Part shown: piece after piece, positions 26,395-44,890 of the stretch
Numbering within the stretch: the stretch's first letter is position 1
How the letters are laid out: each line of letters starts with the position of its first letter
Made by a program: the position numbers and the translations under genes
Notes under the pieces: generated by a model
Told to the model about the DNA's origin: nothing
What the model saw: the letters and a program-made list of their open reading frames with translations, nothing else
Database searches by the model: none
Assembly (NCBI RefSeq): GCF_006345805.1
Contig: NC_043000.1
Location: 33,108,001-33,172,000 of the forward strand
Direction of reading: 5' to 3'
Length of the DNA stretch: 64,000 nt
Source of the DNA: Octopus sinensis
Lineage: Eukaryota

Positions 26395-26629
26395 CTCTCT
26401 CTCTCTATATATATATAAGAAATATTGGGGGTGATGTACAGATTTAAAGAAGAAAAAAGAAAAAAGAGAAAAAACACATTTTTAAAACACACACACCCAT
26501 ATTCTCTCTCTTTCACCTTCTTCCTCCTTCTATTCCCCATTATACACACACACACACACACACACACTCCTCTCTCTCTCCCCACTTCATTCACCAATAA
26601 TATAAAAACAGGCAAAACTCTACAAACTG

Positions 26630-26676
26630 ACATTTCTGATGAGACTACAGTAGTGGTTGAAAGCGCTTAAATATGT
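26630..26676 (+). ncRNA. Candidate minimal type-I hammerhead ribozyme
   Basis: ACATTT-CTGATGA-GACTAC(AGTA)GTGGTT-GAAA-GCGC-TT-AAATATGT: intact core, 6-bp stem II, palindromic stem III (AGCGCT), stem I with a 2-nt bulge. Confidence 0.6.
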
Positions 26677-27322
26677 AATTAAATATGTGATTTGAAGAAA
26701 TAATATGTGATATGTAAATAAATATATATATATTTATATACAATCATCCAGCATTCTGAATGCCTATTTCTCTCCTATATATATATAAACTTTAATCATA
26801 TATTATTTTTTATAATAATAATGTAGTCTTCAATTAGATACCATATTATAAAAATTATATAATTAAAGTTATTATTGAAAAATGACCTATGTGGTCGTTC
26901 TTCTTCTCCATAATTTAAACAGCCTTAGGGTTGTTTAAACATTTATAAATACACACACACACACACACACACAACACACACACACACCACACACACACAC
27001 TTATGTATGCATTGTATAAAGAACGCCAGCCAGGGGTCATGCCTTATTCAATTGTCGAGAAGCTAGATAGCCCTAACAACCTCTCTGACTTCGATAATGC
27101 CGCTCTCCCTCACGGTGCCAACCTCCATTGACGATATGATGAAATAATAAGATTCTTAAGGACCACACCATGCCCCCTTTTACACCCCGCTGCTCACCGT
27201 GTATGTTTTACTGACGATTTGTTCATTGATCTCCCTATTGGCCTTTCTCTCCATCATCAACTACCTTCCGCTTCCTCCTTCAGTTCACCAATCACCCTTC
27301 TGCTATCCATCTCAATTTCAAT

Positions 27323-27550: not shown

Positions 27551-28432
27551 ACAATCTCACGAGATCCGAAGCCCAACAAGAAGCTACTTAAACAGCGTAA
27601 GTCATGCCCCACCCCGGGTGTTCGGCATCGCACCCTTTATCATTTTCGTCTCAGCTGTGTTTTTATACTGCATCTTTAAATCAGTAACGGCAGACGAAAT
27701 ACGGCTACGCATTAAATCAGTAACGGTTTCCTGATTAACATTCCGGGTAATCTGGGTTTATTAATTAATTTGACTTAAATTGATTATGTATCATCATTAC
27801 CGCCGCCACCACCACCACCACCACCTCTGTAAGCATCATTACTATCAACATCTCAACCACTAACCCGCCACCGCCACACTCATCCCCCATTACCCCCTTC
27901 TCCACATCACTCCACCACCATCTCCTCCTCTGCGAGCAATACTTCGACAACCAGTAACAACACTAACATTGCGACAACAATCACGACAACCGCTACTAGA
28001 TATACTAAAAGACTGGATGGTCACGAATGGAATGTCTTGACTTAGGTCTGCTTTAATGAGTTTTGGCTTTGCACAAATATTTTCCTAGAAGAATATTGAA
28101 TCCATCTCAATAGGATTTGAACCTGTAACCGAGGGAGACTCAACTCTGTTCATTTATTAATAGCGACAGTTATAATGCAGTTTCTTTGAAAATGGTATTA
28201 AATAGAAGACTAAGGGTTACCGAAAGCATAATCTGAATCGACATCAAAAGATGGCTGCTCTAGACCGAGGAAAGATGAAGGCGATCCGTATGAGATCTAA
28301 ACACGAAATAGTCAGAGATTAAAATAGGTAAAGTTGCTCTCCACCGCTTCTGCTATCAAACAGCAATTATTAACATTAATTACTTACATTATATACATTT
28401 GTCGGATATTTGTCCTCATCTTGTTTGTTGTT

Positions 28433-28478
28433 AACACAACGTTTCGGCTGATATACCCTCCAGCCTTCATCAGGTATC
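28433..28478 (-). ncRNA. Candidate minimal type-I hammerhead ribozyme
   Basis: Minus strand reads GATAC-CTGATGA-A-GGCTG(gagggtatat)CAGCC-GAAAC-GT-T-GTGTT. Stem I is GAUAC/GUGUU and stem III is the palindrome ACGT. Confidence 0.6.
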
Positions 28479-28525
28479 TTGGGGAAATTTCGAACCTGGG
28501 TTCTCATTCCTAAGGTATTTTTCGA

Positions 28526-28603
<78 letters not shown>

Positions 28604-28617
28604 CATTATTATTATTA

Positions 28618-28682
<65 letters not shown>

Positions 28683-29235
28683 GAGTGAGAGAGCAGTTCA
28701 TGCCATCAAAGTGACACTGGGGTAAAATATACGAAGCCCAATATACCCATCATGACTACCCGTCTGATAAAGGTACACCAGGCACATGCATCACAACCAT
28801 ATGTGCGCGACATGGTGATCTCATATCAAGATAAACAGCACATGACCTTGCAGGTGGGGCCCAGTTAGAATTTTCTTCAGGTTGAGTAGCCCATCCTGCT
28901 CAAAAGGTCCTTGAATAAGGGTTGCTTTAGGATGTTGAACGAAACACCTATGTTTCCAGAGGTGAACCATTCAAACTCCAAAGAATCCCTCTCAACACAT
29001 GGCCATGATGCTCCCCCACTACTTCTGCTCGTGATCAGAGATGCACGTATTGTCAGCCACTAAGGGACATGCTCAACTGGTTAAGGTCAAACAACTGACA
29101 AGCAAATCTGTGGTATTGAGCAGAATATTTGCTGTAGCCCATCTTTTATACCAAGACAAAACAATGTACATGATAACACTTCCAATCAGTTAAGATCAGA
29201 AGCCATGAGAGCCACTGCCTGGTACTGCATCAGGG

Positions 29236-29332
<97 letters not shown>

Positions 29333-29884
29333 GAGTGAGCGAGCAGAGCATGCCATCAAAGTGACACTGGGGTAAAATATACGAAGCCCAGTATACCCAT
29401 CATGACTACCCGTCTGATAAGGGTACACCAGGCACATGCATTACAACCATATGTGCGCGACATGGTGATCTCATATCAAGATAAACAGCACATGACCTTG
29501 CAGGTGGGGCCCAGTTAGAATTTTCTTCAGGTTGAGTAGCCCATCCTGCTCAAAAGGTCCTTGAATAAGGGTTGCTTTAGGATGTTGAACGAAACACCCA
29601 TGTTTCCAGAGGTGAACCATTCAAACTCAAAGAATCCCTCTCAACACATGGCCATGATGCTCCCCCACTACTTCTGCTCGTGATCAGAGATGCACGTATT
29701 GTCAGCCACTAAGGGACATGCTCAACTGGTTAAGGTCAAACAACTGACAAGCAAATCTGTGGTATTGAGCAGAATATTTGCTGTAGCCCATCTTTTATAC
29801 CAAGACAAAACAATGTACATGATAACACTTCCAATCAGTTAAGATCAGAAGCCATGAGAGCCACTGCCTGGTACTGCATCAGGG

Positions 29885-29923
<39 letters not shown>

Positions 29924-29953
29924 CATTATTATTATTATTATTATTTATTATTA

Positions 29954-29986
<33 letters not shown>

Positions 29987-30560
29987 CATTATTATTATTA
30001 TTATTGAGTGAGCGAGCAGAGCATGCCATCAAAGTGACACTGGGGTAAAATATACGAAGCCCAGTATACCCATCATGACTACCCGTCTGATAAGGGTACA
30101 CCAGGCACATGCATTACAGCCATATGTGCGCGACATGGTGATCTCATATCAAGATAAACAGCACATGACCTTGCAGGTGGGGCCCAGTTAGAATTTTCTT
30201 CAGATCGAGTAACCCATCCCGCTCAAAAGGTCCCTGAATAAGGGTTGTTTAAGGATGTTGAACGAAACACCCATGTTTCCAGAGGTGAATTATTCAAACC
30301 CCAAAGAATCCTTCTCAACACATGGCTATGATGCTCCCCCACTACTTCTGCTCGTGATCAGAGATGCACATATCGTCAGCCACTAAGGGACATGCTCAAC
30401 TGGTTAAGGTCAAACAACTAACAAGCAAATCTGTGGTATTGAGCAGAATATTTGCTGTAGCCCATCTTTTATACCAAGACAAAACAATGTACATGATAAC
30501 ACTTCCAATCAGTTAAGATCAGAAGCCATGAGAGCCACTGCCTGGTACTGCATCAGGGCA
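28683..30560. mobile_element. Three tandem copies of a roughly 555-bp non-coding element separated by (TTA)n
   Basis: Units at about 28683-29237, 29333-29886 and 30006-30560, each gagtgag...gcatcagggca and flanked by (TTA)n. Confidence 0.9.
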
Positions 30561-30569
30561 TTATTATTA

Positions 30570-30608
<39 letters not shown>

Positions 30609-30642
30609 ATTATTATTATTATTATTCAGGTCACTGCCTGGA

Positions 30643-30830
30643 CATATGGCGTAGTCAAGAGCGTGGGCTAATAACCCCTAGATTCCGAAAACAACATCGA
30701 AAAATACCTTAGGTATGAGAACCCAGGTTCGAAATTTCCCCAAGACACCTGATGAAGGCTGGAGGGTATATCAGCCGAAACAAGATGAGAACAAATATCC
30801 GTCAAATGTAAATAATGTAAATAATGTACA
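30643..30830 (+). mobile_element. tRNA-like head plus hammerhead-core element; inverted partner of 28375-28530
   Basis: A-box-like TGGCGTAGT and an anticodon-like hairpin, then a segment reverse-complementary to 28380-28528 with CTGATGA...GAAAC at 30749-30781 (stem III deleted). Confidence 0.6.
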
Positions 30831-31286
30831 TAATTCCTCATCTCTTAAATATAGAACTGTATTAATTACTTAATACTAGATAATAAAATTAATTCTATAC
30901 AACAATGATAATAGCTTTAAATATATGCAGAAATGTAGAAAAACAACACATGGTTGGTGAGTCCTTTCATTATTGGAACCATGGAAATTTAAACTAATTA
31001 AATTAATTAATCAAACAACTGTGGAACATTTGTTTACGTTTGAATCAAATACGTAACAATTAATTATCATAAATTAACTAATTATTTTCGAATGAACCAT
31101 ATCAGCTGTCTAATACATATGGCATTAGAGCCGTGGCTGCGTCGATGTGAGTTAATAACATTTAGTTTGAGCTCGATGTATTAACACAGTCATAGAGACA
31201 CTACAATAGATCACGCAGCTCACACAGCTTCCCGTTATTCCATTGCAGTCATTAATAATATCGAAATATATCAATGTTACACTTAC

Positions 31287-31872
31287 CGGAAGTGATGTGA
31301 CTGGATTTCCGTTTAGTGGGCATCGGCGAATCGTCTTCACCGTTGTTAATGTCAACATCTTTGTCACTGCCCGTTGAATCACGCGGTGATGGACTGGTTG
31401 AACATTCAACTTCCATACTTCCTCCATTCGTCGATGATCCGTTGCTGCAAACTTGCACCAGTTTCGGGTAGGAAAGTCCTGGTATGGGCAGGAAGTTGTT
31501 CGTATAAGCCGGATGTGGAAACAGAGCTGCTGTTGCAAGTCCAGCGGTTGGCGGTAGACCGGGGCCAGATGGATTTGAACCCGGACGGGCTGGTACATTT
31601 GAGGTAGAAGCTGCAGCAGCCGCCATAAAGCATTTCGGAGATTGTAGACTGAGGGATTGTTGGTTGAGACCGGAAGAAGGGGAATCACAATCTCCGCCAA
31701 CGAAAGCGTTGGCATTTCGAAGGATGCGGTTGATTGAGCTGACACTCGGTATTGATTGTTCATCACAGATTCGTTGAGCCAAAAGCCGATCACGGATTTC
31801 CCAGGCGAATATCGACGGGTTTTCTTGCTTAAAGTTCAAAATCTTACGAACAACCAGAGGTGTCGCCACTTG
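31287..31872 (-). CDS. Poxn: Poxn exon encoding the C-terminal part of the paired domain plus a Ser/Pro/Ala-rich region
   Basis: Acceptor attaaAG followed by [53 protein letters not shown]...KRKSSHITS. The extra Q before VATP matches Poxn. Donor GTAAGT at 31286. Length 586 nt (phase 0 in, phase 1 out). Confidence 0.93.
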
Positions 31873-32917
31873 CTTTAATGTTGAAATTTAAAAGAGAAAA
31901 AGAGTGAGATAGAAAAATTAAAATGTAGACATTATGAAAATATTGGACAATTTCAAAGACATAATTAATTAATAATGTTCTGTAATTATATTTGTAACAA
32001 AAATCAATGCAAATATAAACCTGTTTTATATGTTTCGGTCATTATAATCATTGATCATTTACAAGTCCAATACATACATACATACTTACAACACATATAT
32101 GTCTGCCTATATGTATATGAATGTGTGTGTGTGTGGAGTCACAAGCGATGTCATCGCCGAGAGACACAGACTTTGTCGTCGCCAGACACTGATGGACTAT
32201 CTACAATATTTCAGCTTATGTTCCTCGATACGAAAAAAAAAAAATCTATAACCTTCCGTCTCAATAAACCACTATTGTCACTGAAAGTTGCTTTTTATAT
32301 TTACAACGGATCACTTGAAGCTAACTTTCTTCCTACACCTCGATCCTACACACACACAAACATATAACCGCCATGTGTATCTCTTCGATTCTTTTCTCTT
32401 TATACTCTGTGAGACAAGACCTTGTTCTTGTAACCGATTTATTTCGTACATTTTTTTTGCTTTATATGAGGCATTTGTTTTTCATTTCCCGGTCATTTAA
32501 TGGAAATAAAACCATTTTCCAGGAACATCCCAGCTTTTAGTGCTTATTCCATTCTTCTCAGACAAAGCAACAAATATTTGTGTTCCATTTGCTAAACCTG
32601 GGTAGATGTGGCTTCTTTTGGGGTATCATTAAACTCAAAACTCGTTGTAGGGCTGTAGTATGATAGCTGTGTGCGTTTCTAATCAGGATCTATTTTGATA
32701 AATTAACTAAGGTAGACTTGAGCAACATATGATGTTGTGGTTGTACGAAACAACATATTGAAATTTATAGTAAACTGAACGGAAACGAAGTTTACAAGCC
32801 CTTATTAGGATTGATTAATTAATCAATTTATCAATTAATTAAATATATGTAACTTATGAAAAGAAAGCAATTTCAGAAGTTATGAAAGCGATCATCATCA
32901 TTATTATAATTATATAA

Positions 32918-34203: not shown

Positions 34204-34651
34204 TTGATCTTTGTAATGATATTCAATTGTCGATGAACCCTCGTCGTCTCTATGTTAGGTTTAAAGAGAAAACTGTGTTCCTCTTCCTCCCACCCTGAGG
34301 TTGATATTAGTTAAGATTAGGGAAAACGGTCAGCGCAGGGAGAAGGAAGATGGAGGGAAGCGGGAAACGATCTTTAAAAGAGAGAGAGAGATATCATAGG
34401 ATTATGCCGAAGTGGAGGGAAGGATGGGGGAGGTGGGTTAAAGAAGGAAAGAAGGGAAAGTAAGTGAAGAAGGAGGAAAGGAAAAGAAAGAATGAAAGAA
34501 AGAAAGATTTAAAGAATTAGAGAAAAAGAGAATTAAAGAATGAAAGAAAGAAAGAAAGGAAGAAAGAGAGAGAAAGAAAGAGAGAGAGAAAGAAAGATTC
34601 ATTGGAAAGAATGTCGGAAACTATACTCACAAAACTGATATTTACCCTCAC

Positions 34652-34872
34652 CTTCGGCTTACTGCCACCAATAGAACCAGGCTTGATGGAACCTGTCTCG
34701 TAAAATCTCGTCAGTATCTTACTAACACAGCCGTGTGAGACGAGAAGTTGCCGCGAGATGTCACATGGCCGTACGCCCATCTGTGCTAACTCCACTATTC
34801 GTCGTCTGATGTGATCGGGAAGAGGTCGACCATTGACAAAGACACCGCCCAACTGGTTCACACCCGTCTGAC
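34652..34872 (-). CDS. Poxn: Pox neuro-class paired-box gene, exon encoding the N-terminal part of the paired domain
   Basis: Translates (G)[73 protein letters not shown]. Acceptor ttttacAG at 34873-34874 (phase 1) and donor GTGAGG starting at 34651 (phase 0). RQLLVSH and ILTRFYETG are Poxn-type residues. Confidence 0.95.
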
Positions 34873-37128
34873 CTGTAAAAGCGAACAGAAATAAAAGAAA
34901 CCGTTTCAAAAGGGGAAAGAAAAGAAAACGTATCGATATTTTTTTAATGATGTTGACTGGTCGAAGGGTGGGTCCCGTGGGTCAGGGGAACTGGAGGGAG
35001 GAAAGGGAATCAGGGAATACGTATCAGGAATAAGTTATTCTGCGATTGGAGTTTGGCTCAGATATCTATACTCCATCTGGTGGAATTATTGATCTCACCA
35101 AAAGACCAATTGTAGCCATGGATTAAGGTCGTCCTTCAGGTTTCATCAGCCCAATCTCAGTCGCTAGGCGAGATCGACTCCAGGATATTGTAGAAGGAAC
35201 TTTCCTGGGGTCACTGCAGCGCAGTGAGATCGAAACCTGAACTACATGATTGGAAAGCGAATATCTTCATCGTATTTTGATCGTGTGGCCATATTAGCGT
35301 TGGTGTTTCTGCTGCTGTTTGTTTGTTTGTTGAGCGTAGCGGTCTTCGTCCCATTAGTGGGAGAAGTCCAAAACATGGTTCTTTGCTATTCGTAAGACCT
35401 GCAGAAGAGAAAGCAGGTCAACCCCCGACACCGAGAGCATCGACGGATGGATGAATGCGCATCCAGGCTCAGCGAAGTCGGGGATGCTGCTGCTGTTGTT
35501 GCTGTAGTAGTATAGAATTGAAATAGAAGAAATTTGGGTGCGTTGCCTGGAGATATTGGGTCTTAATTAAAGTGATATCTCGAAACGGGATAGTTTTCTG
35601 CATCATGTCATTGTTTCCAAGTGTGTTTGGTTAAGGCAACATTAACACGTGGCAGCCGTGTCTCCCTAGCGCTATGGAAATGTTATAATTTACCACTGTG
35701 ACATTTATGTACAATGAGGTGGAAGATGTTATAATTGTCTGCCGTAGAGAGATGGCAGCAATAAGCAGTAATATCTCAATGTTATGACTGCTTTTTGTAA
35801 AGAATGGCAACTGTGACCACAAAATCGTCGCTCGGTTGGACACCACCACCTGGCTGCACCTTAAGCGGTTTTAGTAGAGTCCACCGTATTGCAAGCATTT
35901 CGGGTCGAGTTTCTAGTATGAGTGCAACTCCCTCCTCCTCCTCCTCCTAAAAGGCTCTGTAATCGCCGATGGGTACTGGCTTCGTCCTGAGTCCTTCGAC
36001 CAAACATTCATCGATGGTTTTCGTTTGGTTTAATAACAGGTGCAATGTTGTTGTTCTTGATGTTGTTTAGGTGCAGGTCAGCTCTGGTCGGGCAAAATTA
36101 TAATCAAAGAAACTGCAACCATGATCATTCCGTTTAGTATGTCTTTTTAAGCACAATGAGTCTAGCATTGCTTTATCGCCGTCCAATAAAATCTTAGAAT
36201 GTGATCTGAGAGAGATTTAGCTGCTATTTCTAGCACCCCCAGCTTATCACCTACAATGTTAGGAAATGAACTTAGATCGATAAATCAATATTCTTATCAA
36301 TATGAAAGCCCCAAAATTATCCCCCAACATCTCTGTATTGGCTTCTTGTTTTTGTTTTTGTTTTTTCCTTACAATCAGCCAATGTAGGATATTGTTTTAA
36401 TTGAAGAGAAAAGAAGACGGCGGCAGAAAATAGAGATCGAATTGTAAATTGTTGACTCTAGACAGAAACTTGTTGAAGGCTGAAAAAAATGCGAAACGAA
36501 ATACTAAACTGAAGAAAGAACATCAGTCGAAGTTCTGCTTTGTGTTTTAATGTTTCGAGGTTAGGGCCCTTTCTTCATGGGGAGAGGAGAGATGGAATAA
36601 ATCGTTTCTCATGTACGTGGGACAAGATTGTGACATTTCTCCATGTCCTGAGGAAAGGGTCATGTCCTGAGGTCATGTCCTGAGGAAAGGGTCATAACAC
36701 CGAGATATCGAAATGCAAGGTAAAACGTCTACGTGTTGTTATCTCCTCACTTTCCTGGTTCAATTCATCTTGCATTTCGCATCATTTCGGCCTTCAAACA
36801 ATTTTTTTTACTAGGGTTAAATCAGTTGAGTGTAGACACGTGTCCATGTGTTGATTTGAGCCATTCCAATAAATCAGTATCAAAGGATACACAGGGAGGC
36901 GGAGTCGATGTTTGGTTACATCTTTTTGAGTTCAAAATACGCCGAGGTCAGTTTTCTATTTCTTCCTTCCAGAGTCAATTTAAAAAGTCCTAAACAAATC
37001 ATGGAGTCACTTTAATAGGTTTTATACTCTTGGACATTGGGTCCATGTTTTTATGTTTAGAGATCAGAACTGGAAAGGTTCGAGCATATTGCGTCTGTCC
37101 AAGAGGAACATCAATTATATCAATCACA

Positions 37129-44479: not shown

Positions 44480-44890
44480 TTGTGCGAAAGTACATTTATA
44501 TGCGTGTAGGCATCTCGATAGTCTTTCAGAAATTCTATTAAGTATCTTTTCGTTAGTTCACAGAATAGACAGGGATTCATCGGAGCAGAGACGGCATCTC
44601 CTGGAAATTGCACTGAATGGTTTTGCATGTCTAACTACGGACCAAGAAATGTATTTTGTATTAGCCTCCATCAGTCGCCATATAAAATCTGCCAAAGATG
44701 TTGAATGTCTCTTATTGATTGACCTAAAGCTGGCAACATGATTATAACAACGATTCTTAAATGAATCAGCCGTCTGCCCAATGTAAACATAGAGCCTTCT
44801 CCTTGAGTGCATGGTACATTTATATACAAGAGTTGTACTCAAACAGAGATTCATCAAAGGACATTTTTATTTATTTCTGCATGAGCATTT
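44480..44890 (-). pseudogene. Penelope-like GIY-YIG endonuclease remnant
   Basis: LVYKC...YVYIGQTADSFKNRCYNHVASF...TSLADFIW...CRLCSDE...LNRISE...CLH. Confidence 0.8.

Follow-up and report, generated by a model that had tools for sequence, protein, structure and literature searches.

An inverted repeat pair in a 64-kb stretch of the Octopus sinensis genome and its link to a Penelope-type retroelement with a tRNA-derived segment in its terminal repeat

The subject of this report is an inverted pair of hammerhead-bearing repeat arms in a stretch of 64,000 nucleotides (nt) of Octopus sinensis DNA (NCBI RefSeq assembly GCF_006345805.1, contig NC_043000.1, positions 33,108,001 to 33,172,000 of the forward strand), the whole of which is called ‘the window’ here and is numbered from its first letter. 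An initial annotation had taken the pair for a non-autonomous RNA polymerase III (Pol III) element made of a tRNA head, a TAA spacer, and a ribozyme, i.e. a short interspersed element (SINE) or retrozyme mobilized by a Penelope-like element (PLE). Here, we describe the pair, its family, and its coding parent. Judged by sequence comparison, the arms are copies of the pseudo-long terminal repeat (pseudo-LTR) of a Penelope/Poseidon-type retroelement, which encodes a reverse transcriptase (RT) and, C-terminal to it, an endonuclease (EN) of the GIY-YIG kind.

Two alignments define the arms: 28428-28532 matches 30690-30794 in inverted orientation (105 nt, 91% identity), and 28379-28426 matches 30778-30825 (48 nt, 92% identity). 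As had been noted at the outset, CTGATGA, stem II, and GAAAC are present in both arms, and the arms meet head-to-head, the junction lying at 30640-30642. A tRNA-like segment opens the plus arm; at the start of the minus arm stand the final 18 nt of that segment, followed by (TAA)n, and both of these features, too, are present as first described. A 12-bp direct repeat, the longest word common to the two flanks, brackets the whole pair (locus L000; Table 1). Relative to the family majority, the plus arm carries two deletions, one directly after GAAAC and a second that removes the B box and the TAA tract. The minus arm has kept the pairing of its hammerhead stem I through one extra G-U pair, and its TAA tract is interrupted by three copies of an unrelated 553-nt repeat, the outer two being 98.6% and 96.9% identical to the middle one.

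Two paired-box exons are found on the minus strand, at 34517-34981 and 31252-31887 (Pfam PAX), and the pair lies outside both of them, downstream of the second. It most likely sits in an intron of this paired-box gene, which may resemble Pox neuro. The copy is probably inert, most likely a relic stranded in the intron, which after insertion would have lost its B box and one cleavage site while its TAA tract received three further insertions. Searches with general RNA models returned little at this place: Rfam gave neither a hammerhead nor a tRNA match at 30630-30880 (E up to 10) or on eight related loci, and no hammerhead among the best 150 of 354 matches on the whole window, and ARAGORN at its default setting called no tRNA in the window.

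Table 1. Features of the inverted pair, in window coordinates.
Feature	Position	Strand	Basis or remark
Target-site duplication, left copy, 12 bp	28375..28386	.	Sequence; longest word shared by both flanks, 12 nt
Pseudo-LTR body of minus arm, up to the short end site (no tail)	28387..28527	-	Arm alignment, family columns, pair ends
Minimal hammerhead of type I with complete core; predicted cleavage between 28438 and 28437	28433..28478	-	Sequence, family columns, minimal hammerhead features of PMC4209133
(TAA)n spacer of minus arm, first part	28528..28682	-	
553-nt TAA-associated repeat, secondary insertion copy 1	28683..29236	-	
553-nt TAA-associated repeat, secondary insertion copy 2	29333..29885	-	Flanking TAA tracts 29237-29332, 29886-30005
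553-nt TAA-associated repeat, secondary insertion copy 3	30006..30559	-	
(TAA)n spacer of minus arm, last part	30560..30625	-	
Minus arm 5' end: last bases of tRNA-derived head; 3-nt overlap with plus arm	30626..30642	-	Sequence versus head majority
Plus-arm tRNA-derived head: A-box region (from 30647), anticodon-like arm; B box deleted	30640..30688	+	
Plus arm: pseudo-LTR body and full tail; likely parent start codon 30715-30717	30695..30860	+	N-terminal frame same in relative P0005
Broken hammerhead: core and stem II kept; 18-nt deletion after 30781	30744..30781	+	Cleavage site and stem I 3' strand lost
Target-site duplication, right copy; first 4 nt possibly tail (microhomology)	30861..30872	.	

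The family is large. Two DNA searches of the genome (2.72 Gb) gave 45 and 41 matches among the 40 scored of 1,984 and 1,614 candidates, respectively. A random sample of 80 evenly spaced 10-kb stretches (799,800 called bases) contained six loci of the element, a count that leaves out one marginal 44-nt match; an inverted arm was present at four of the six and open reading frame (ORF) sequence at none. Scaled from this sample, the genome-wide estimate is ~20,000 loci (95% range 7,500-44,000), at which tRNA head, TAA spacer, and hammerhead are joined as one family-wide unit, as the initial annotation would have it. Mean divergence of the arms from their majority is 5.0% (188 arms).

The head of this unit is derived from a tRNA, a statement that rests on family-level tests of its sequence. 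Its majority, built from 79 matches, is 73 nt long and has A and B boxes at tRNA positions, so the two boxes are linked, as had been supposed, and both they and their spacing are intact. Against genomic tRNA-Arg(TCT) it is identical in 49 of 76 columns (z 7.1) and against tRNA-Ala in 47 of 75 (z 6.8); with 10 tRNAs for six amino acids compared, Arg and Ala score alike as the source. When ARAGORN was run on 42 individual heads, it called a tRNA in four at threshold 90, in nine at 80, and in none at default.

The unit has a coding parent of the Penelope/Poseidon type. Four of the first loci extend 5' of the head into a reading frame, and a search with the ORF-end piece gave 30 loci; as read by eye, 26 of these lead directly into the head or a part of it, four being copies of a single insertion. 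In longer stretches, frames for RT and endonuclease extend across ~2.3 kb, and the 5' end carries an inverted arm. The RT frame matches Pfam RVT_1 (E 1.5e-9), with telomerase RTs among the weak PDB matches, and the frame that follows it shows, by eye, a GIY-YIG-like motif and C/H residues; Pfam gave no GIY-YIG match on the endonuclease frame. A cysteine linker between RT and EN is a mark of Neptune and Nematis (PMC8557442); by eye, it is absent from the parent frames and present in a Neptune-like control family. Stops or frameshifts break every parent copy read, and an intact relative of 847 amino acids (aa), P0005, is 55% identical to the parent. Additionally, under four more organism labels there are contigs that cover the head and ORF end, single contigs bridging the ORF end-head junction in two of the listed pieces; none of the listed sequence records carrying the element is on record as RNA.

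At its other side, the 30 loci obtained with the ORF start as query have body and tail continuing straight into the ORF. The tail thus forms the first part of the ORF, with the start codon ahead of the hammerhead. A short peptide motif over the ribozyme core is shared with P0005. The order of the unit is ORF end, a short spacer with a small palindrome, the 73-nt head, (TAA)n, a body with start codon and hammerhead, and a tail that is the ORF N-terminus. Four loci (L274, L278, L284, and L288) contain the full tandem junction from ORF end through head and body to ORF start, and three copies that start at the head continue into the ORF (L277, L282, and L268/L269). In L112-L140, the spacer that separates ORF stop from head finishes with 15-18 nt that look like an inverted copy of the first bases of the head, as if the present end of the parent had arisen from an old fold-back junction.

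The family is accordingly not a stand-alone non-autonomous SINE, as it had been taken to be: its coding parent has the same head both behind the ORF, as in the 26 loci above, and in front of it. One might still suppose a Pol III SINE or retrozyme that is independent and non-autonomous and relies on a Penelope element distinct from it, the coding copies being later chimeras, since short copies far outnumber coding ones in the random sample and have a defined 5' end. We regard this as very improbable: nearly all ORF-end loci, as well as the tandem junctions, have the head placed after the ORF stop and before the hammerhead, the body contains the ORF start codon and an N-terminal frame common to P0005, and among the 30 ORF-end loci no head-less parental pseudo-LTR occurs except deletions and truncations. 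Nor does the GIY-YIG remnant of the window at 44558-44866 fill the role of mobilizing machinery that had been proposed for such remnants; it represents a different family, 20 loci of which share only chance sequence with the body and no 3' part.

The closest protein relatives of the parent (clusters P0001-P0007) are 52-68% identical to it over the C-terminal part. One close cluster contains barnacle proteins, which hint at horizontal spread among marine animals. Their phenylalanine (Phe) content is low, at 2.2-2.5%, the barnacle proteins included, a point taken up below.

The insertions bear the footprint of PLEs, as had been proposed, with an inverted arm, a one-sided tail, and a target duplication, a known Penelope pattern, with a tail of 30-40 bp, rather than a new one (PMC8557442; PMC3846280). 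Of 58 loci selected with the body, 35 have an inverted arm upstream. There are two fixed 3' end sites, one per arm: among 48 pairs, 42 have one long and one short end, five have two short ends, and one has two long ends. A flank repeat of at least 9 nt was found in 24 of the 48 pairs, compared with 4 of 300 random pairings. Paired arms may derive from one template or from two: they share 8.5% of their differences from the majority versus 3.5% in shuffled pairs (maximum 8.5% in 2,000), but a variant at position N7 of the hammerhead (see below) is discordant between them in 8 of the 11 pairs that are informative. Inverted arms with a target-site duplication would also be expected of a DNA-type foldback element or of a miniature inverted-repeat transposable element with terminal inverted repeats. 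We give this explanation almost no weight, as the arms end at two different sites in those 42 pairs, the pair junctions vary, and the duplications range over 8-15 bp; the identity of the arms as the end repeat of an RT-coding element refutes it.

As to the ribozyme, the family majority and the minus arm of the window have all the features of the minimal PLE hammerhead as set out in PMC4209133, i.e. a CUGANGA and GAAA core, a bulge before stem II, G10.1-C11.1, a stem I of 4-5 bp, a palindromic 15.2-16.2, and a UH cut site. The core is intact in 85 of 180 spanning arms, and the cut site is deleted in 36 of 180, a count inflated by the first query, which itself carried the deletion. None of the three results that were to refute the initial annotation has thus come about, since the boxes are linked, the hammerhead core recurs across copies, and head and hammerhead are joined at loci throughout the genome; the plus copy of the window, however, lacks a cleavage site. 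The only variable core site outside CpG is N7, a free position, with 14% A versus ~1% at other T sites; the variation may be a tolerated variant or a mutation hot spot. Monomer folds do not favour the active form, and the monomer of the window’s minus arm prefers another hairpin (z -0.65). Because copies reach ~60-90 nt beyond the cut site, where the ORF-start loci show no accumulation of 5' ends, the template is likely RNA uncut at the hammerhead, as has been reported in vitro for the anole Poseidon element (PMC11167929).

Where the 5' ends of copies do fall is at the head. Of the 29 loci selected with the head, 26 have their end at -7 to +4; in two it is the palindromic junction, and in a single one it falls within the ORF end. 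The 58 body-selected loci include 39 with a head: five end inside the head, three enter the ORF, and for the remaining 31 the end lies either between -6 and +9 or at the palindromic junction. The short copies are hence SINE-like in that they mostly begin at the tRNA start. That the majority of copies start no more than a few bases from tRNA position 1 points to short RNAs initiated by Pol III and copied by the enzyme of the parent. Furthermore, 4 of 7 long-template copies pass the head start compared with 3 of 34 others (Fisher p 0.01), and this greater readiness of long-template copies to pass through argues for an RNA end and not for a fixed block to RT. We therefore think it probable that this Penelope/Poseidon-type element has in its pseudo-LTR a working tRNA-derived Pol III promoter and that its own enzyme copies the short transcripts into a SINE-like swarm.

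Runs of four or more T (T4+) are the textbook stop for Pol III (PMC3141230). The sense strand of the 2,591-nt majority unit (51 loci) has none, versus 29 A runs, and no interrupted T5 occurs in it either; individual copies have 12 T4+ in 47,118 nt. The absence has a P of 0.011-0.013 against base shuffles and of 0.006 against third-position resampling. Phe codons are TTT:TTC 3:14, compared with 88:73 for the other T/C-ending pairs (p 0.004). A Neptune-like control family has 164 T4+ in 72,558 nt (25 loci), i.e. 2.26 per kb at an observed/expected ratio (O/E) of 0.74, and a second GIY-YIG family has T4+ at 0.72-0.82. The corresponding T4+ values are 1.37 in a Dong-like and 1.86 in a Tx1-like family, and in three families besides the Neptune-like one T4+ runs number 3.8-4.8 per kb; the labels Dong-like and Tx1-like, and RTE-like below, were assigned by eye and are our presumption. 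Since the majority unit, unlike the two other Penelope-like families, lacks a T4 run, Pol III may read the whole coding element. Tentatively, and with less confidence than in the short transcripts, we propose that Pol III may read the entire 2.6-kb coding unit, that the coding strand may have been purged of T-run terminators, and that the same promoter may yield the ~20,000 short copies. The low Phe content of the closest relatives hints that Pol III-driven Penelope elements could form a wider clade.

Several points weigh against an active promoter and against whole-unit transcription. Neither ARAGORN at default nor Rfam recognizes the head as a tRNA. A small hairpin with a palindromic hexamer lies exactly at the tRNA start and could by itself stop RT or fold it back. 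The query for the head-selected loci carried a variant at position 3, which favours starts at +4; body-selected L023 is a fourth locus that enters the ORF, through a distant partner arm outside the range of the script; and the 4-of-7 comparison is small. The absence of T4 has P values of only 0.09 against synonymous shuffles and 0.089 against a dinucleotide model, G4 runs are absent as well (P 0.04), and an RTE-like family is likewise poor in T4 (O/E 0.39). Two distant relatives have no T4 in 1,631 and 1,201 nt (~2 expected in each) and no visible head, these being partial sequences with their ends out of view. In three raw RNA runs (unstranded), no start site appeared and the signal mostly follows copy number, so that they count neither for nor against Pol III. 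DNA of close relatives, which could serve to compare heads and T runs, was not found in viral contigs; eight distant partial loci in metagenome contigs show no tRNA head and have T4 counts too small to decide.

These points leave room for a passive relic, in which a short tRNA SINE with a (TAA)n tail landed in the pseudo-LTR, Pol II or read-through accounts for transcription, and ordinary 5' truncation at the hairpin before the head produced the short copies. In keeping with it, the head terminates in (TAA)n as a complete simple SINE would, the hairpin coincides with the 5' pile-up and with the fold-back point in many pairs, known Penelope promoters are of the Pol II type (PMC8557442; PMC3846280), and the T4 statistics are only moderate. 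We nevertheless consider it unlikely. About 90% of short-type copies stop within 17 nt, whereas the majority of the few long-template copies pass the same point; moreover, both boxes are preserved at their proper spacing, the 2.6 kb are free of plain and interrupted T runs, and TTT codons are selectively avoided.

With a working promoter, the cycle might run as follows. Pol III would start a few bases before the head and, in the absence of a terminator, continue through body and tail into the flank; in tandem copies, it would read on through the ORF. The hammerhead would be mostly uncut in the RNA that is copied. The Penelope protein would nick AT-rich DNA, and reverse transcription would begin internally at the tail sites, as has been shown for Poseidon of the anole, whose ORF start contains two such initiation sites (PMC11167929). 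With such an internal start, a ragged 3' end of the Pol III transcript would not matter, and it is conceivable, at the same tentative level as whole-unit reading, of which it is a part, that internal priming at the tail lets a Penelope element tolerate ragged Pol III ends. Finally, the cDNA end formed at the RNA 5' end would re-prime on a short microhomology, on itself or on a second cDNA, and so give rise to the inverted arm.

Other repeats of the window deserve brief mention. The 553-nt repeat occurs in 8 of the 80 random 10-kb stretches, mostly adjoining TAA tracts, has one fixed and one variably cut end, and yields no tRNA call; presumably, it is a Dong/R4-type 3' end or a non-autonomous partner of such an element. 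Repeats of this type have often inserted into the TAA spacer of the Penelope repeat. At 26590-26720 on the plus strand lies a member of a second, unrelated hammerhead-bearing family (core 26636-26662, palindromic loop III), with 45 matches among the 40 scored of 97 candidates; it is rich in T runs and has neither a tRNA head nor an ORF in 30 loci. The GIY-YIG frame remnant at 44558-44866, on the minus strand, comes from a Penelope-like family that is large (15,181 candidates) and decayed and has a long non-coding part on its 3' side. The Neptune-like control family (L321-L345, e.g. L334) is young, with copies 96-98% identical and single-copy open frames of up to 776 aa.

None of the papers listed in our literature searches describes a tRNA promoter in a Penelope pseudo-LTR; Repbase and Dfam lie outside this scope, and the family may be catalogued there as Penelope or as SINE. 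A 2026 annotation of octopus repeats has Penelope and SINE families, in its available portions without such detail (PMC13282606). The parent resembles the Penelope/Poseidon PLEs Poseidon_Ac of the green anole (PMC11167929) and Pen2a of Adineta (PMC3846280) in its single ORF with RT and C-terminal GIY-YIG, in a pseudo-LTR that overlaps the ORF start and has the hammerhead within the first codons, and in its one-arm tail, inverted 5' copy, and target duplication of 8-15 bp. It differs in having, within the pseudo-LTR, a TAA tract and a complete tRNA-derived segment with A and B boxes, whereas the Penelope promoters described in these sources are Pol II-type (TATA/initiator, intron-overlapping), and in its copies, most of which share a single start point rather than showing random truncation. 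For the question of how Penelope inverted pairs form, there is ample material in insertions that number in the thousands and in which the RNA start and two priming sites are defined.

Like tRNA-derived SINEs, the short copies have a 5' head with A and B boxes, are short and numerous, and share their 3' part with the mobilizer. Unlike them, they are mobilized, in all likelihood, by an enzyme of the Penelope type and not of the long interspersed element (LINE) type, have no poly(A) or repeat 3' tail, usually form inverted pairs, and are identical to the terminal repeat of the parent itself. Ohshima and Okada reportedly described octopus tRNA-derived SINE families (OK/OR1/OR2) in 1994, to which the present family is likened by description only. 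Metazoan non-LTR retrozymes are also non-coding hammerhead derivatives of Penelope pseudo-LTRs (bioRxiv 10.64898/2026.07.22.740005), but they form head-to-tail arrays with one ribozyme per short unit; the copies described here are single or head-to-head and begin with a tRNA segment, so the retrozyme label of the initial annotation does not fit them.

A Pol III promoter derived from a small RNA inside the terminal repeat of a retroelement is known from the TRIMp3 elements Cassandra, Helenus, and Ajax, for which insertion of a SINE into the repeat has been proposed as its origin (PMC10886601). Those are non-coding LTR elements whose autonomous partners are expected to use Pol II; here, the tRNA segment is carried in a Penelope pseudo-LTR by the coding element. 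Autonomous retrotransposons are in general expected to use Pol II, Pol III being thought limited to short non-coding elements, as stated for LTR elements (PMC10886601), and if the whole unit described here were a Pol III product, one would have to ask how translation proceeds on an uncapped RNA. Should a tRNA promoter indeed operate in the terminal repeat of a coding Penelope element, that element would be the Penelope counterpart of Cassandra and Helenus, and it would illustrate one way in which a mobilizer can itself directly give rise to a SINE-like family.

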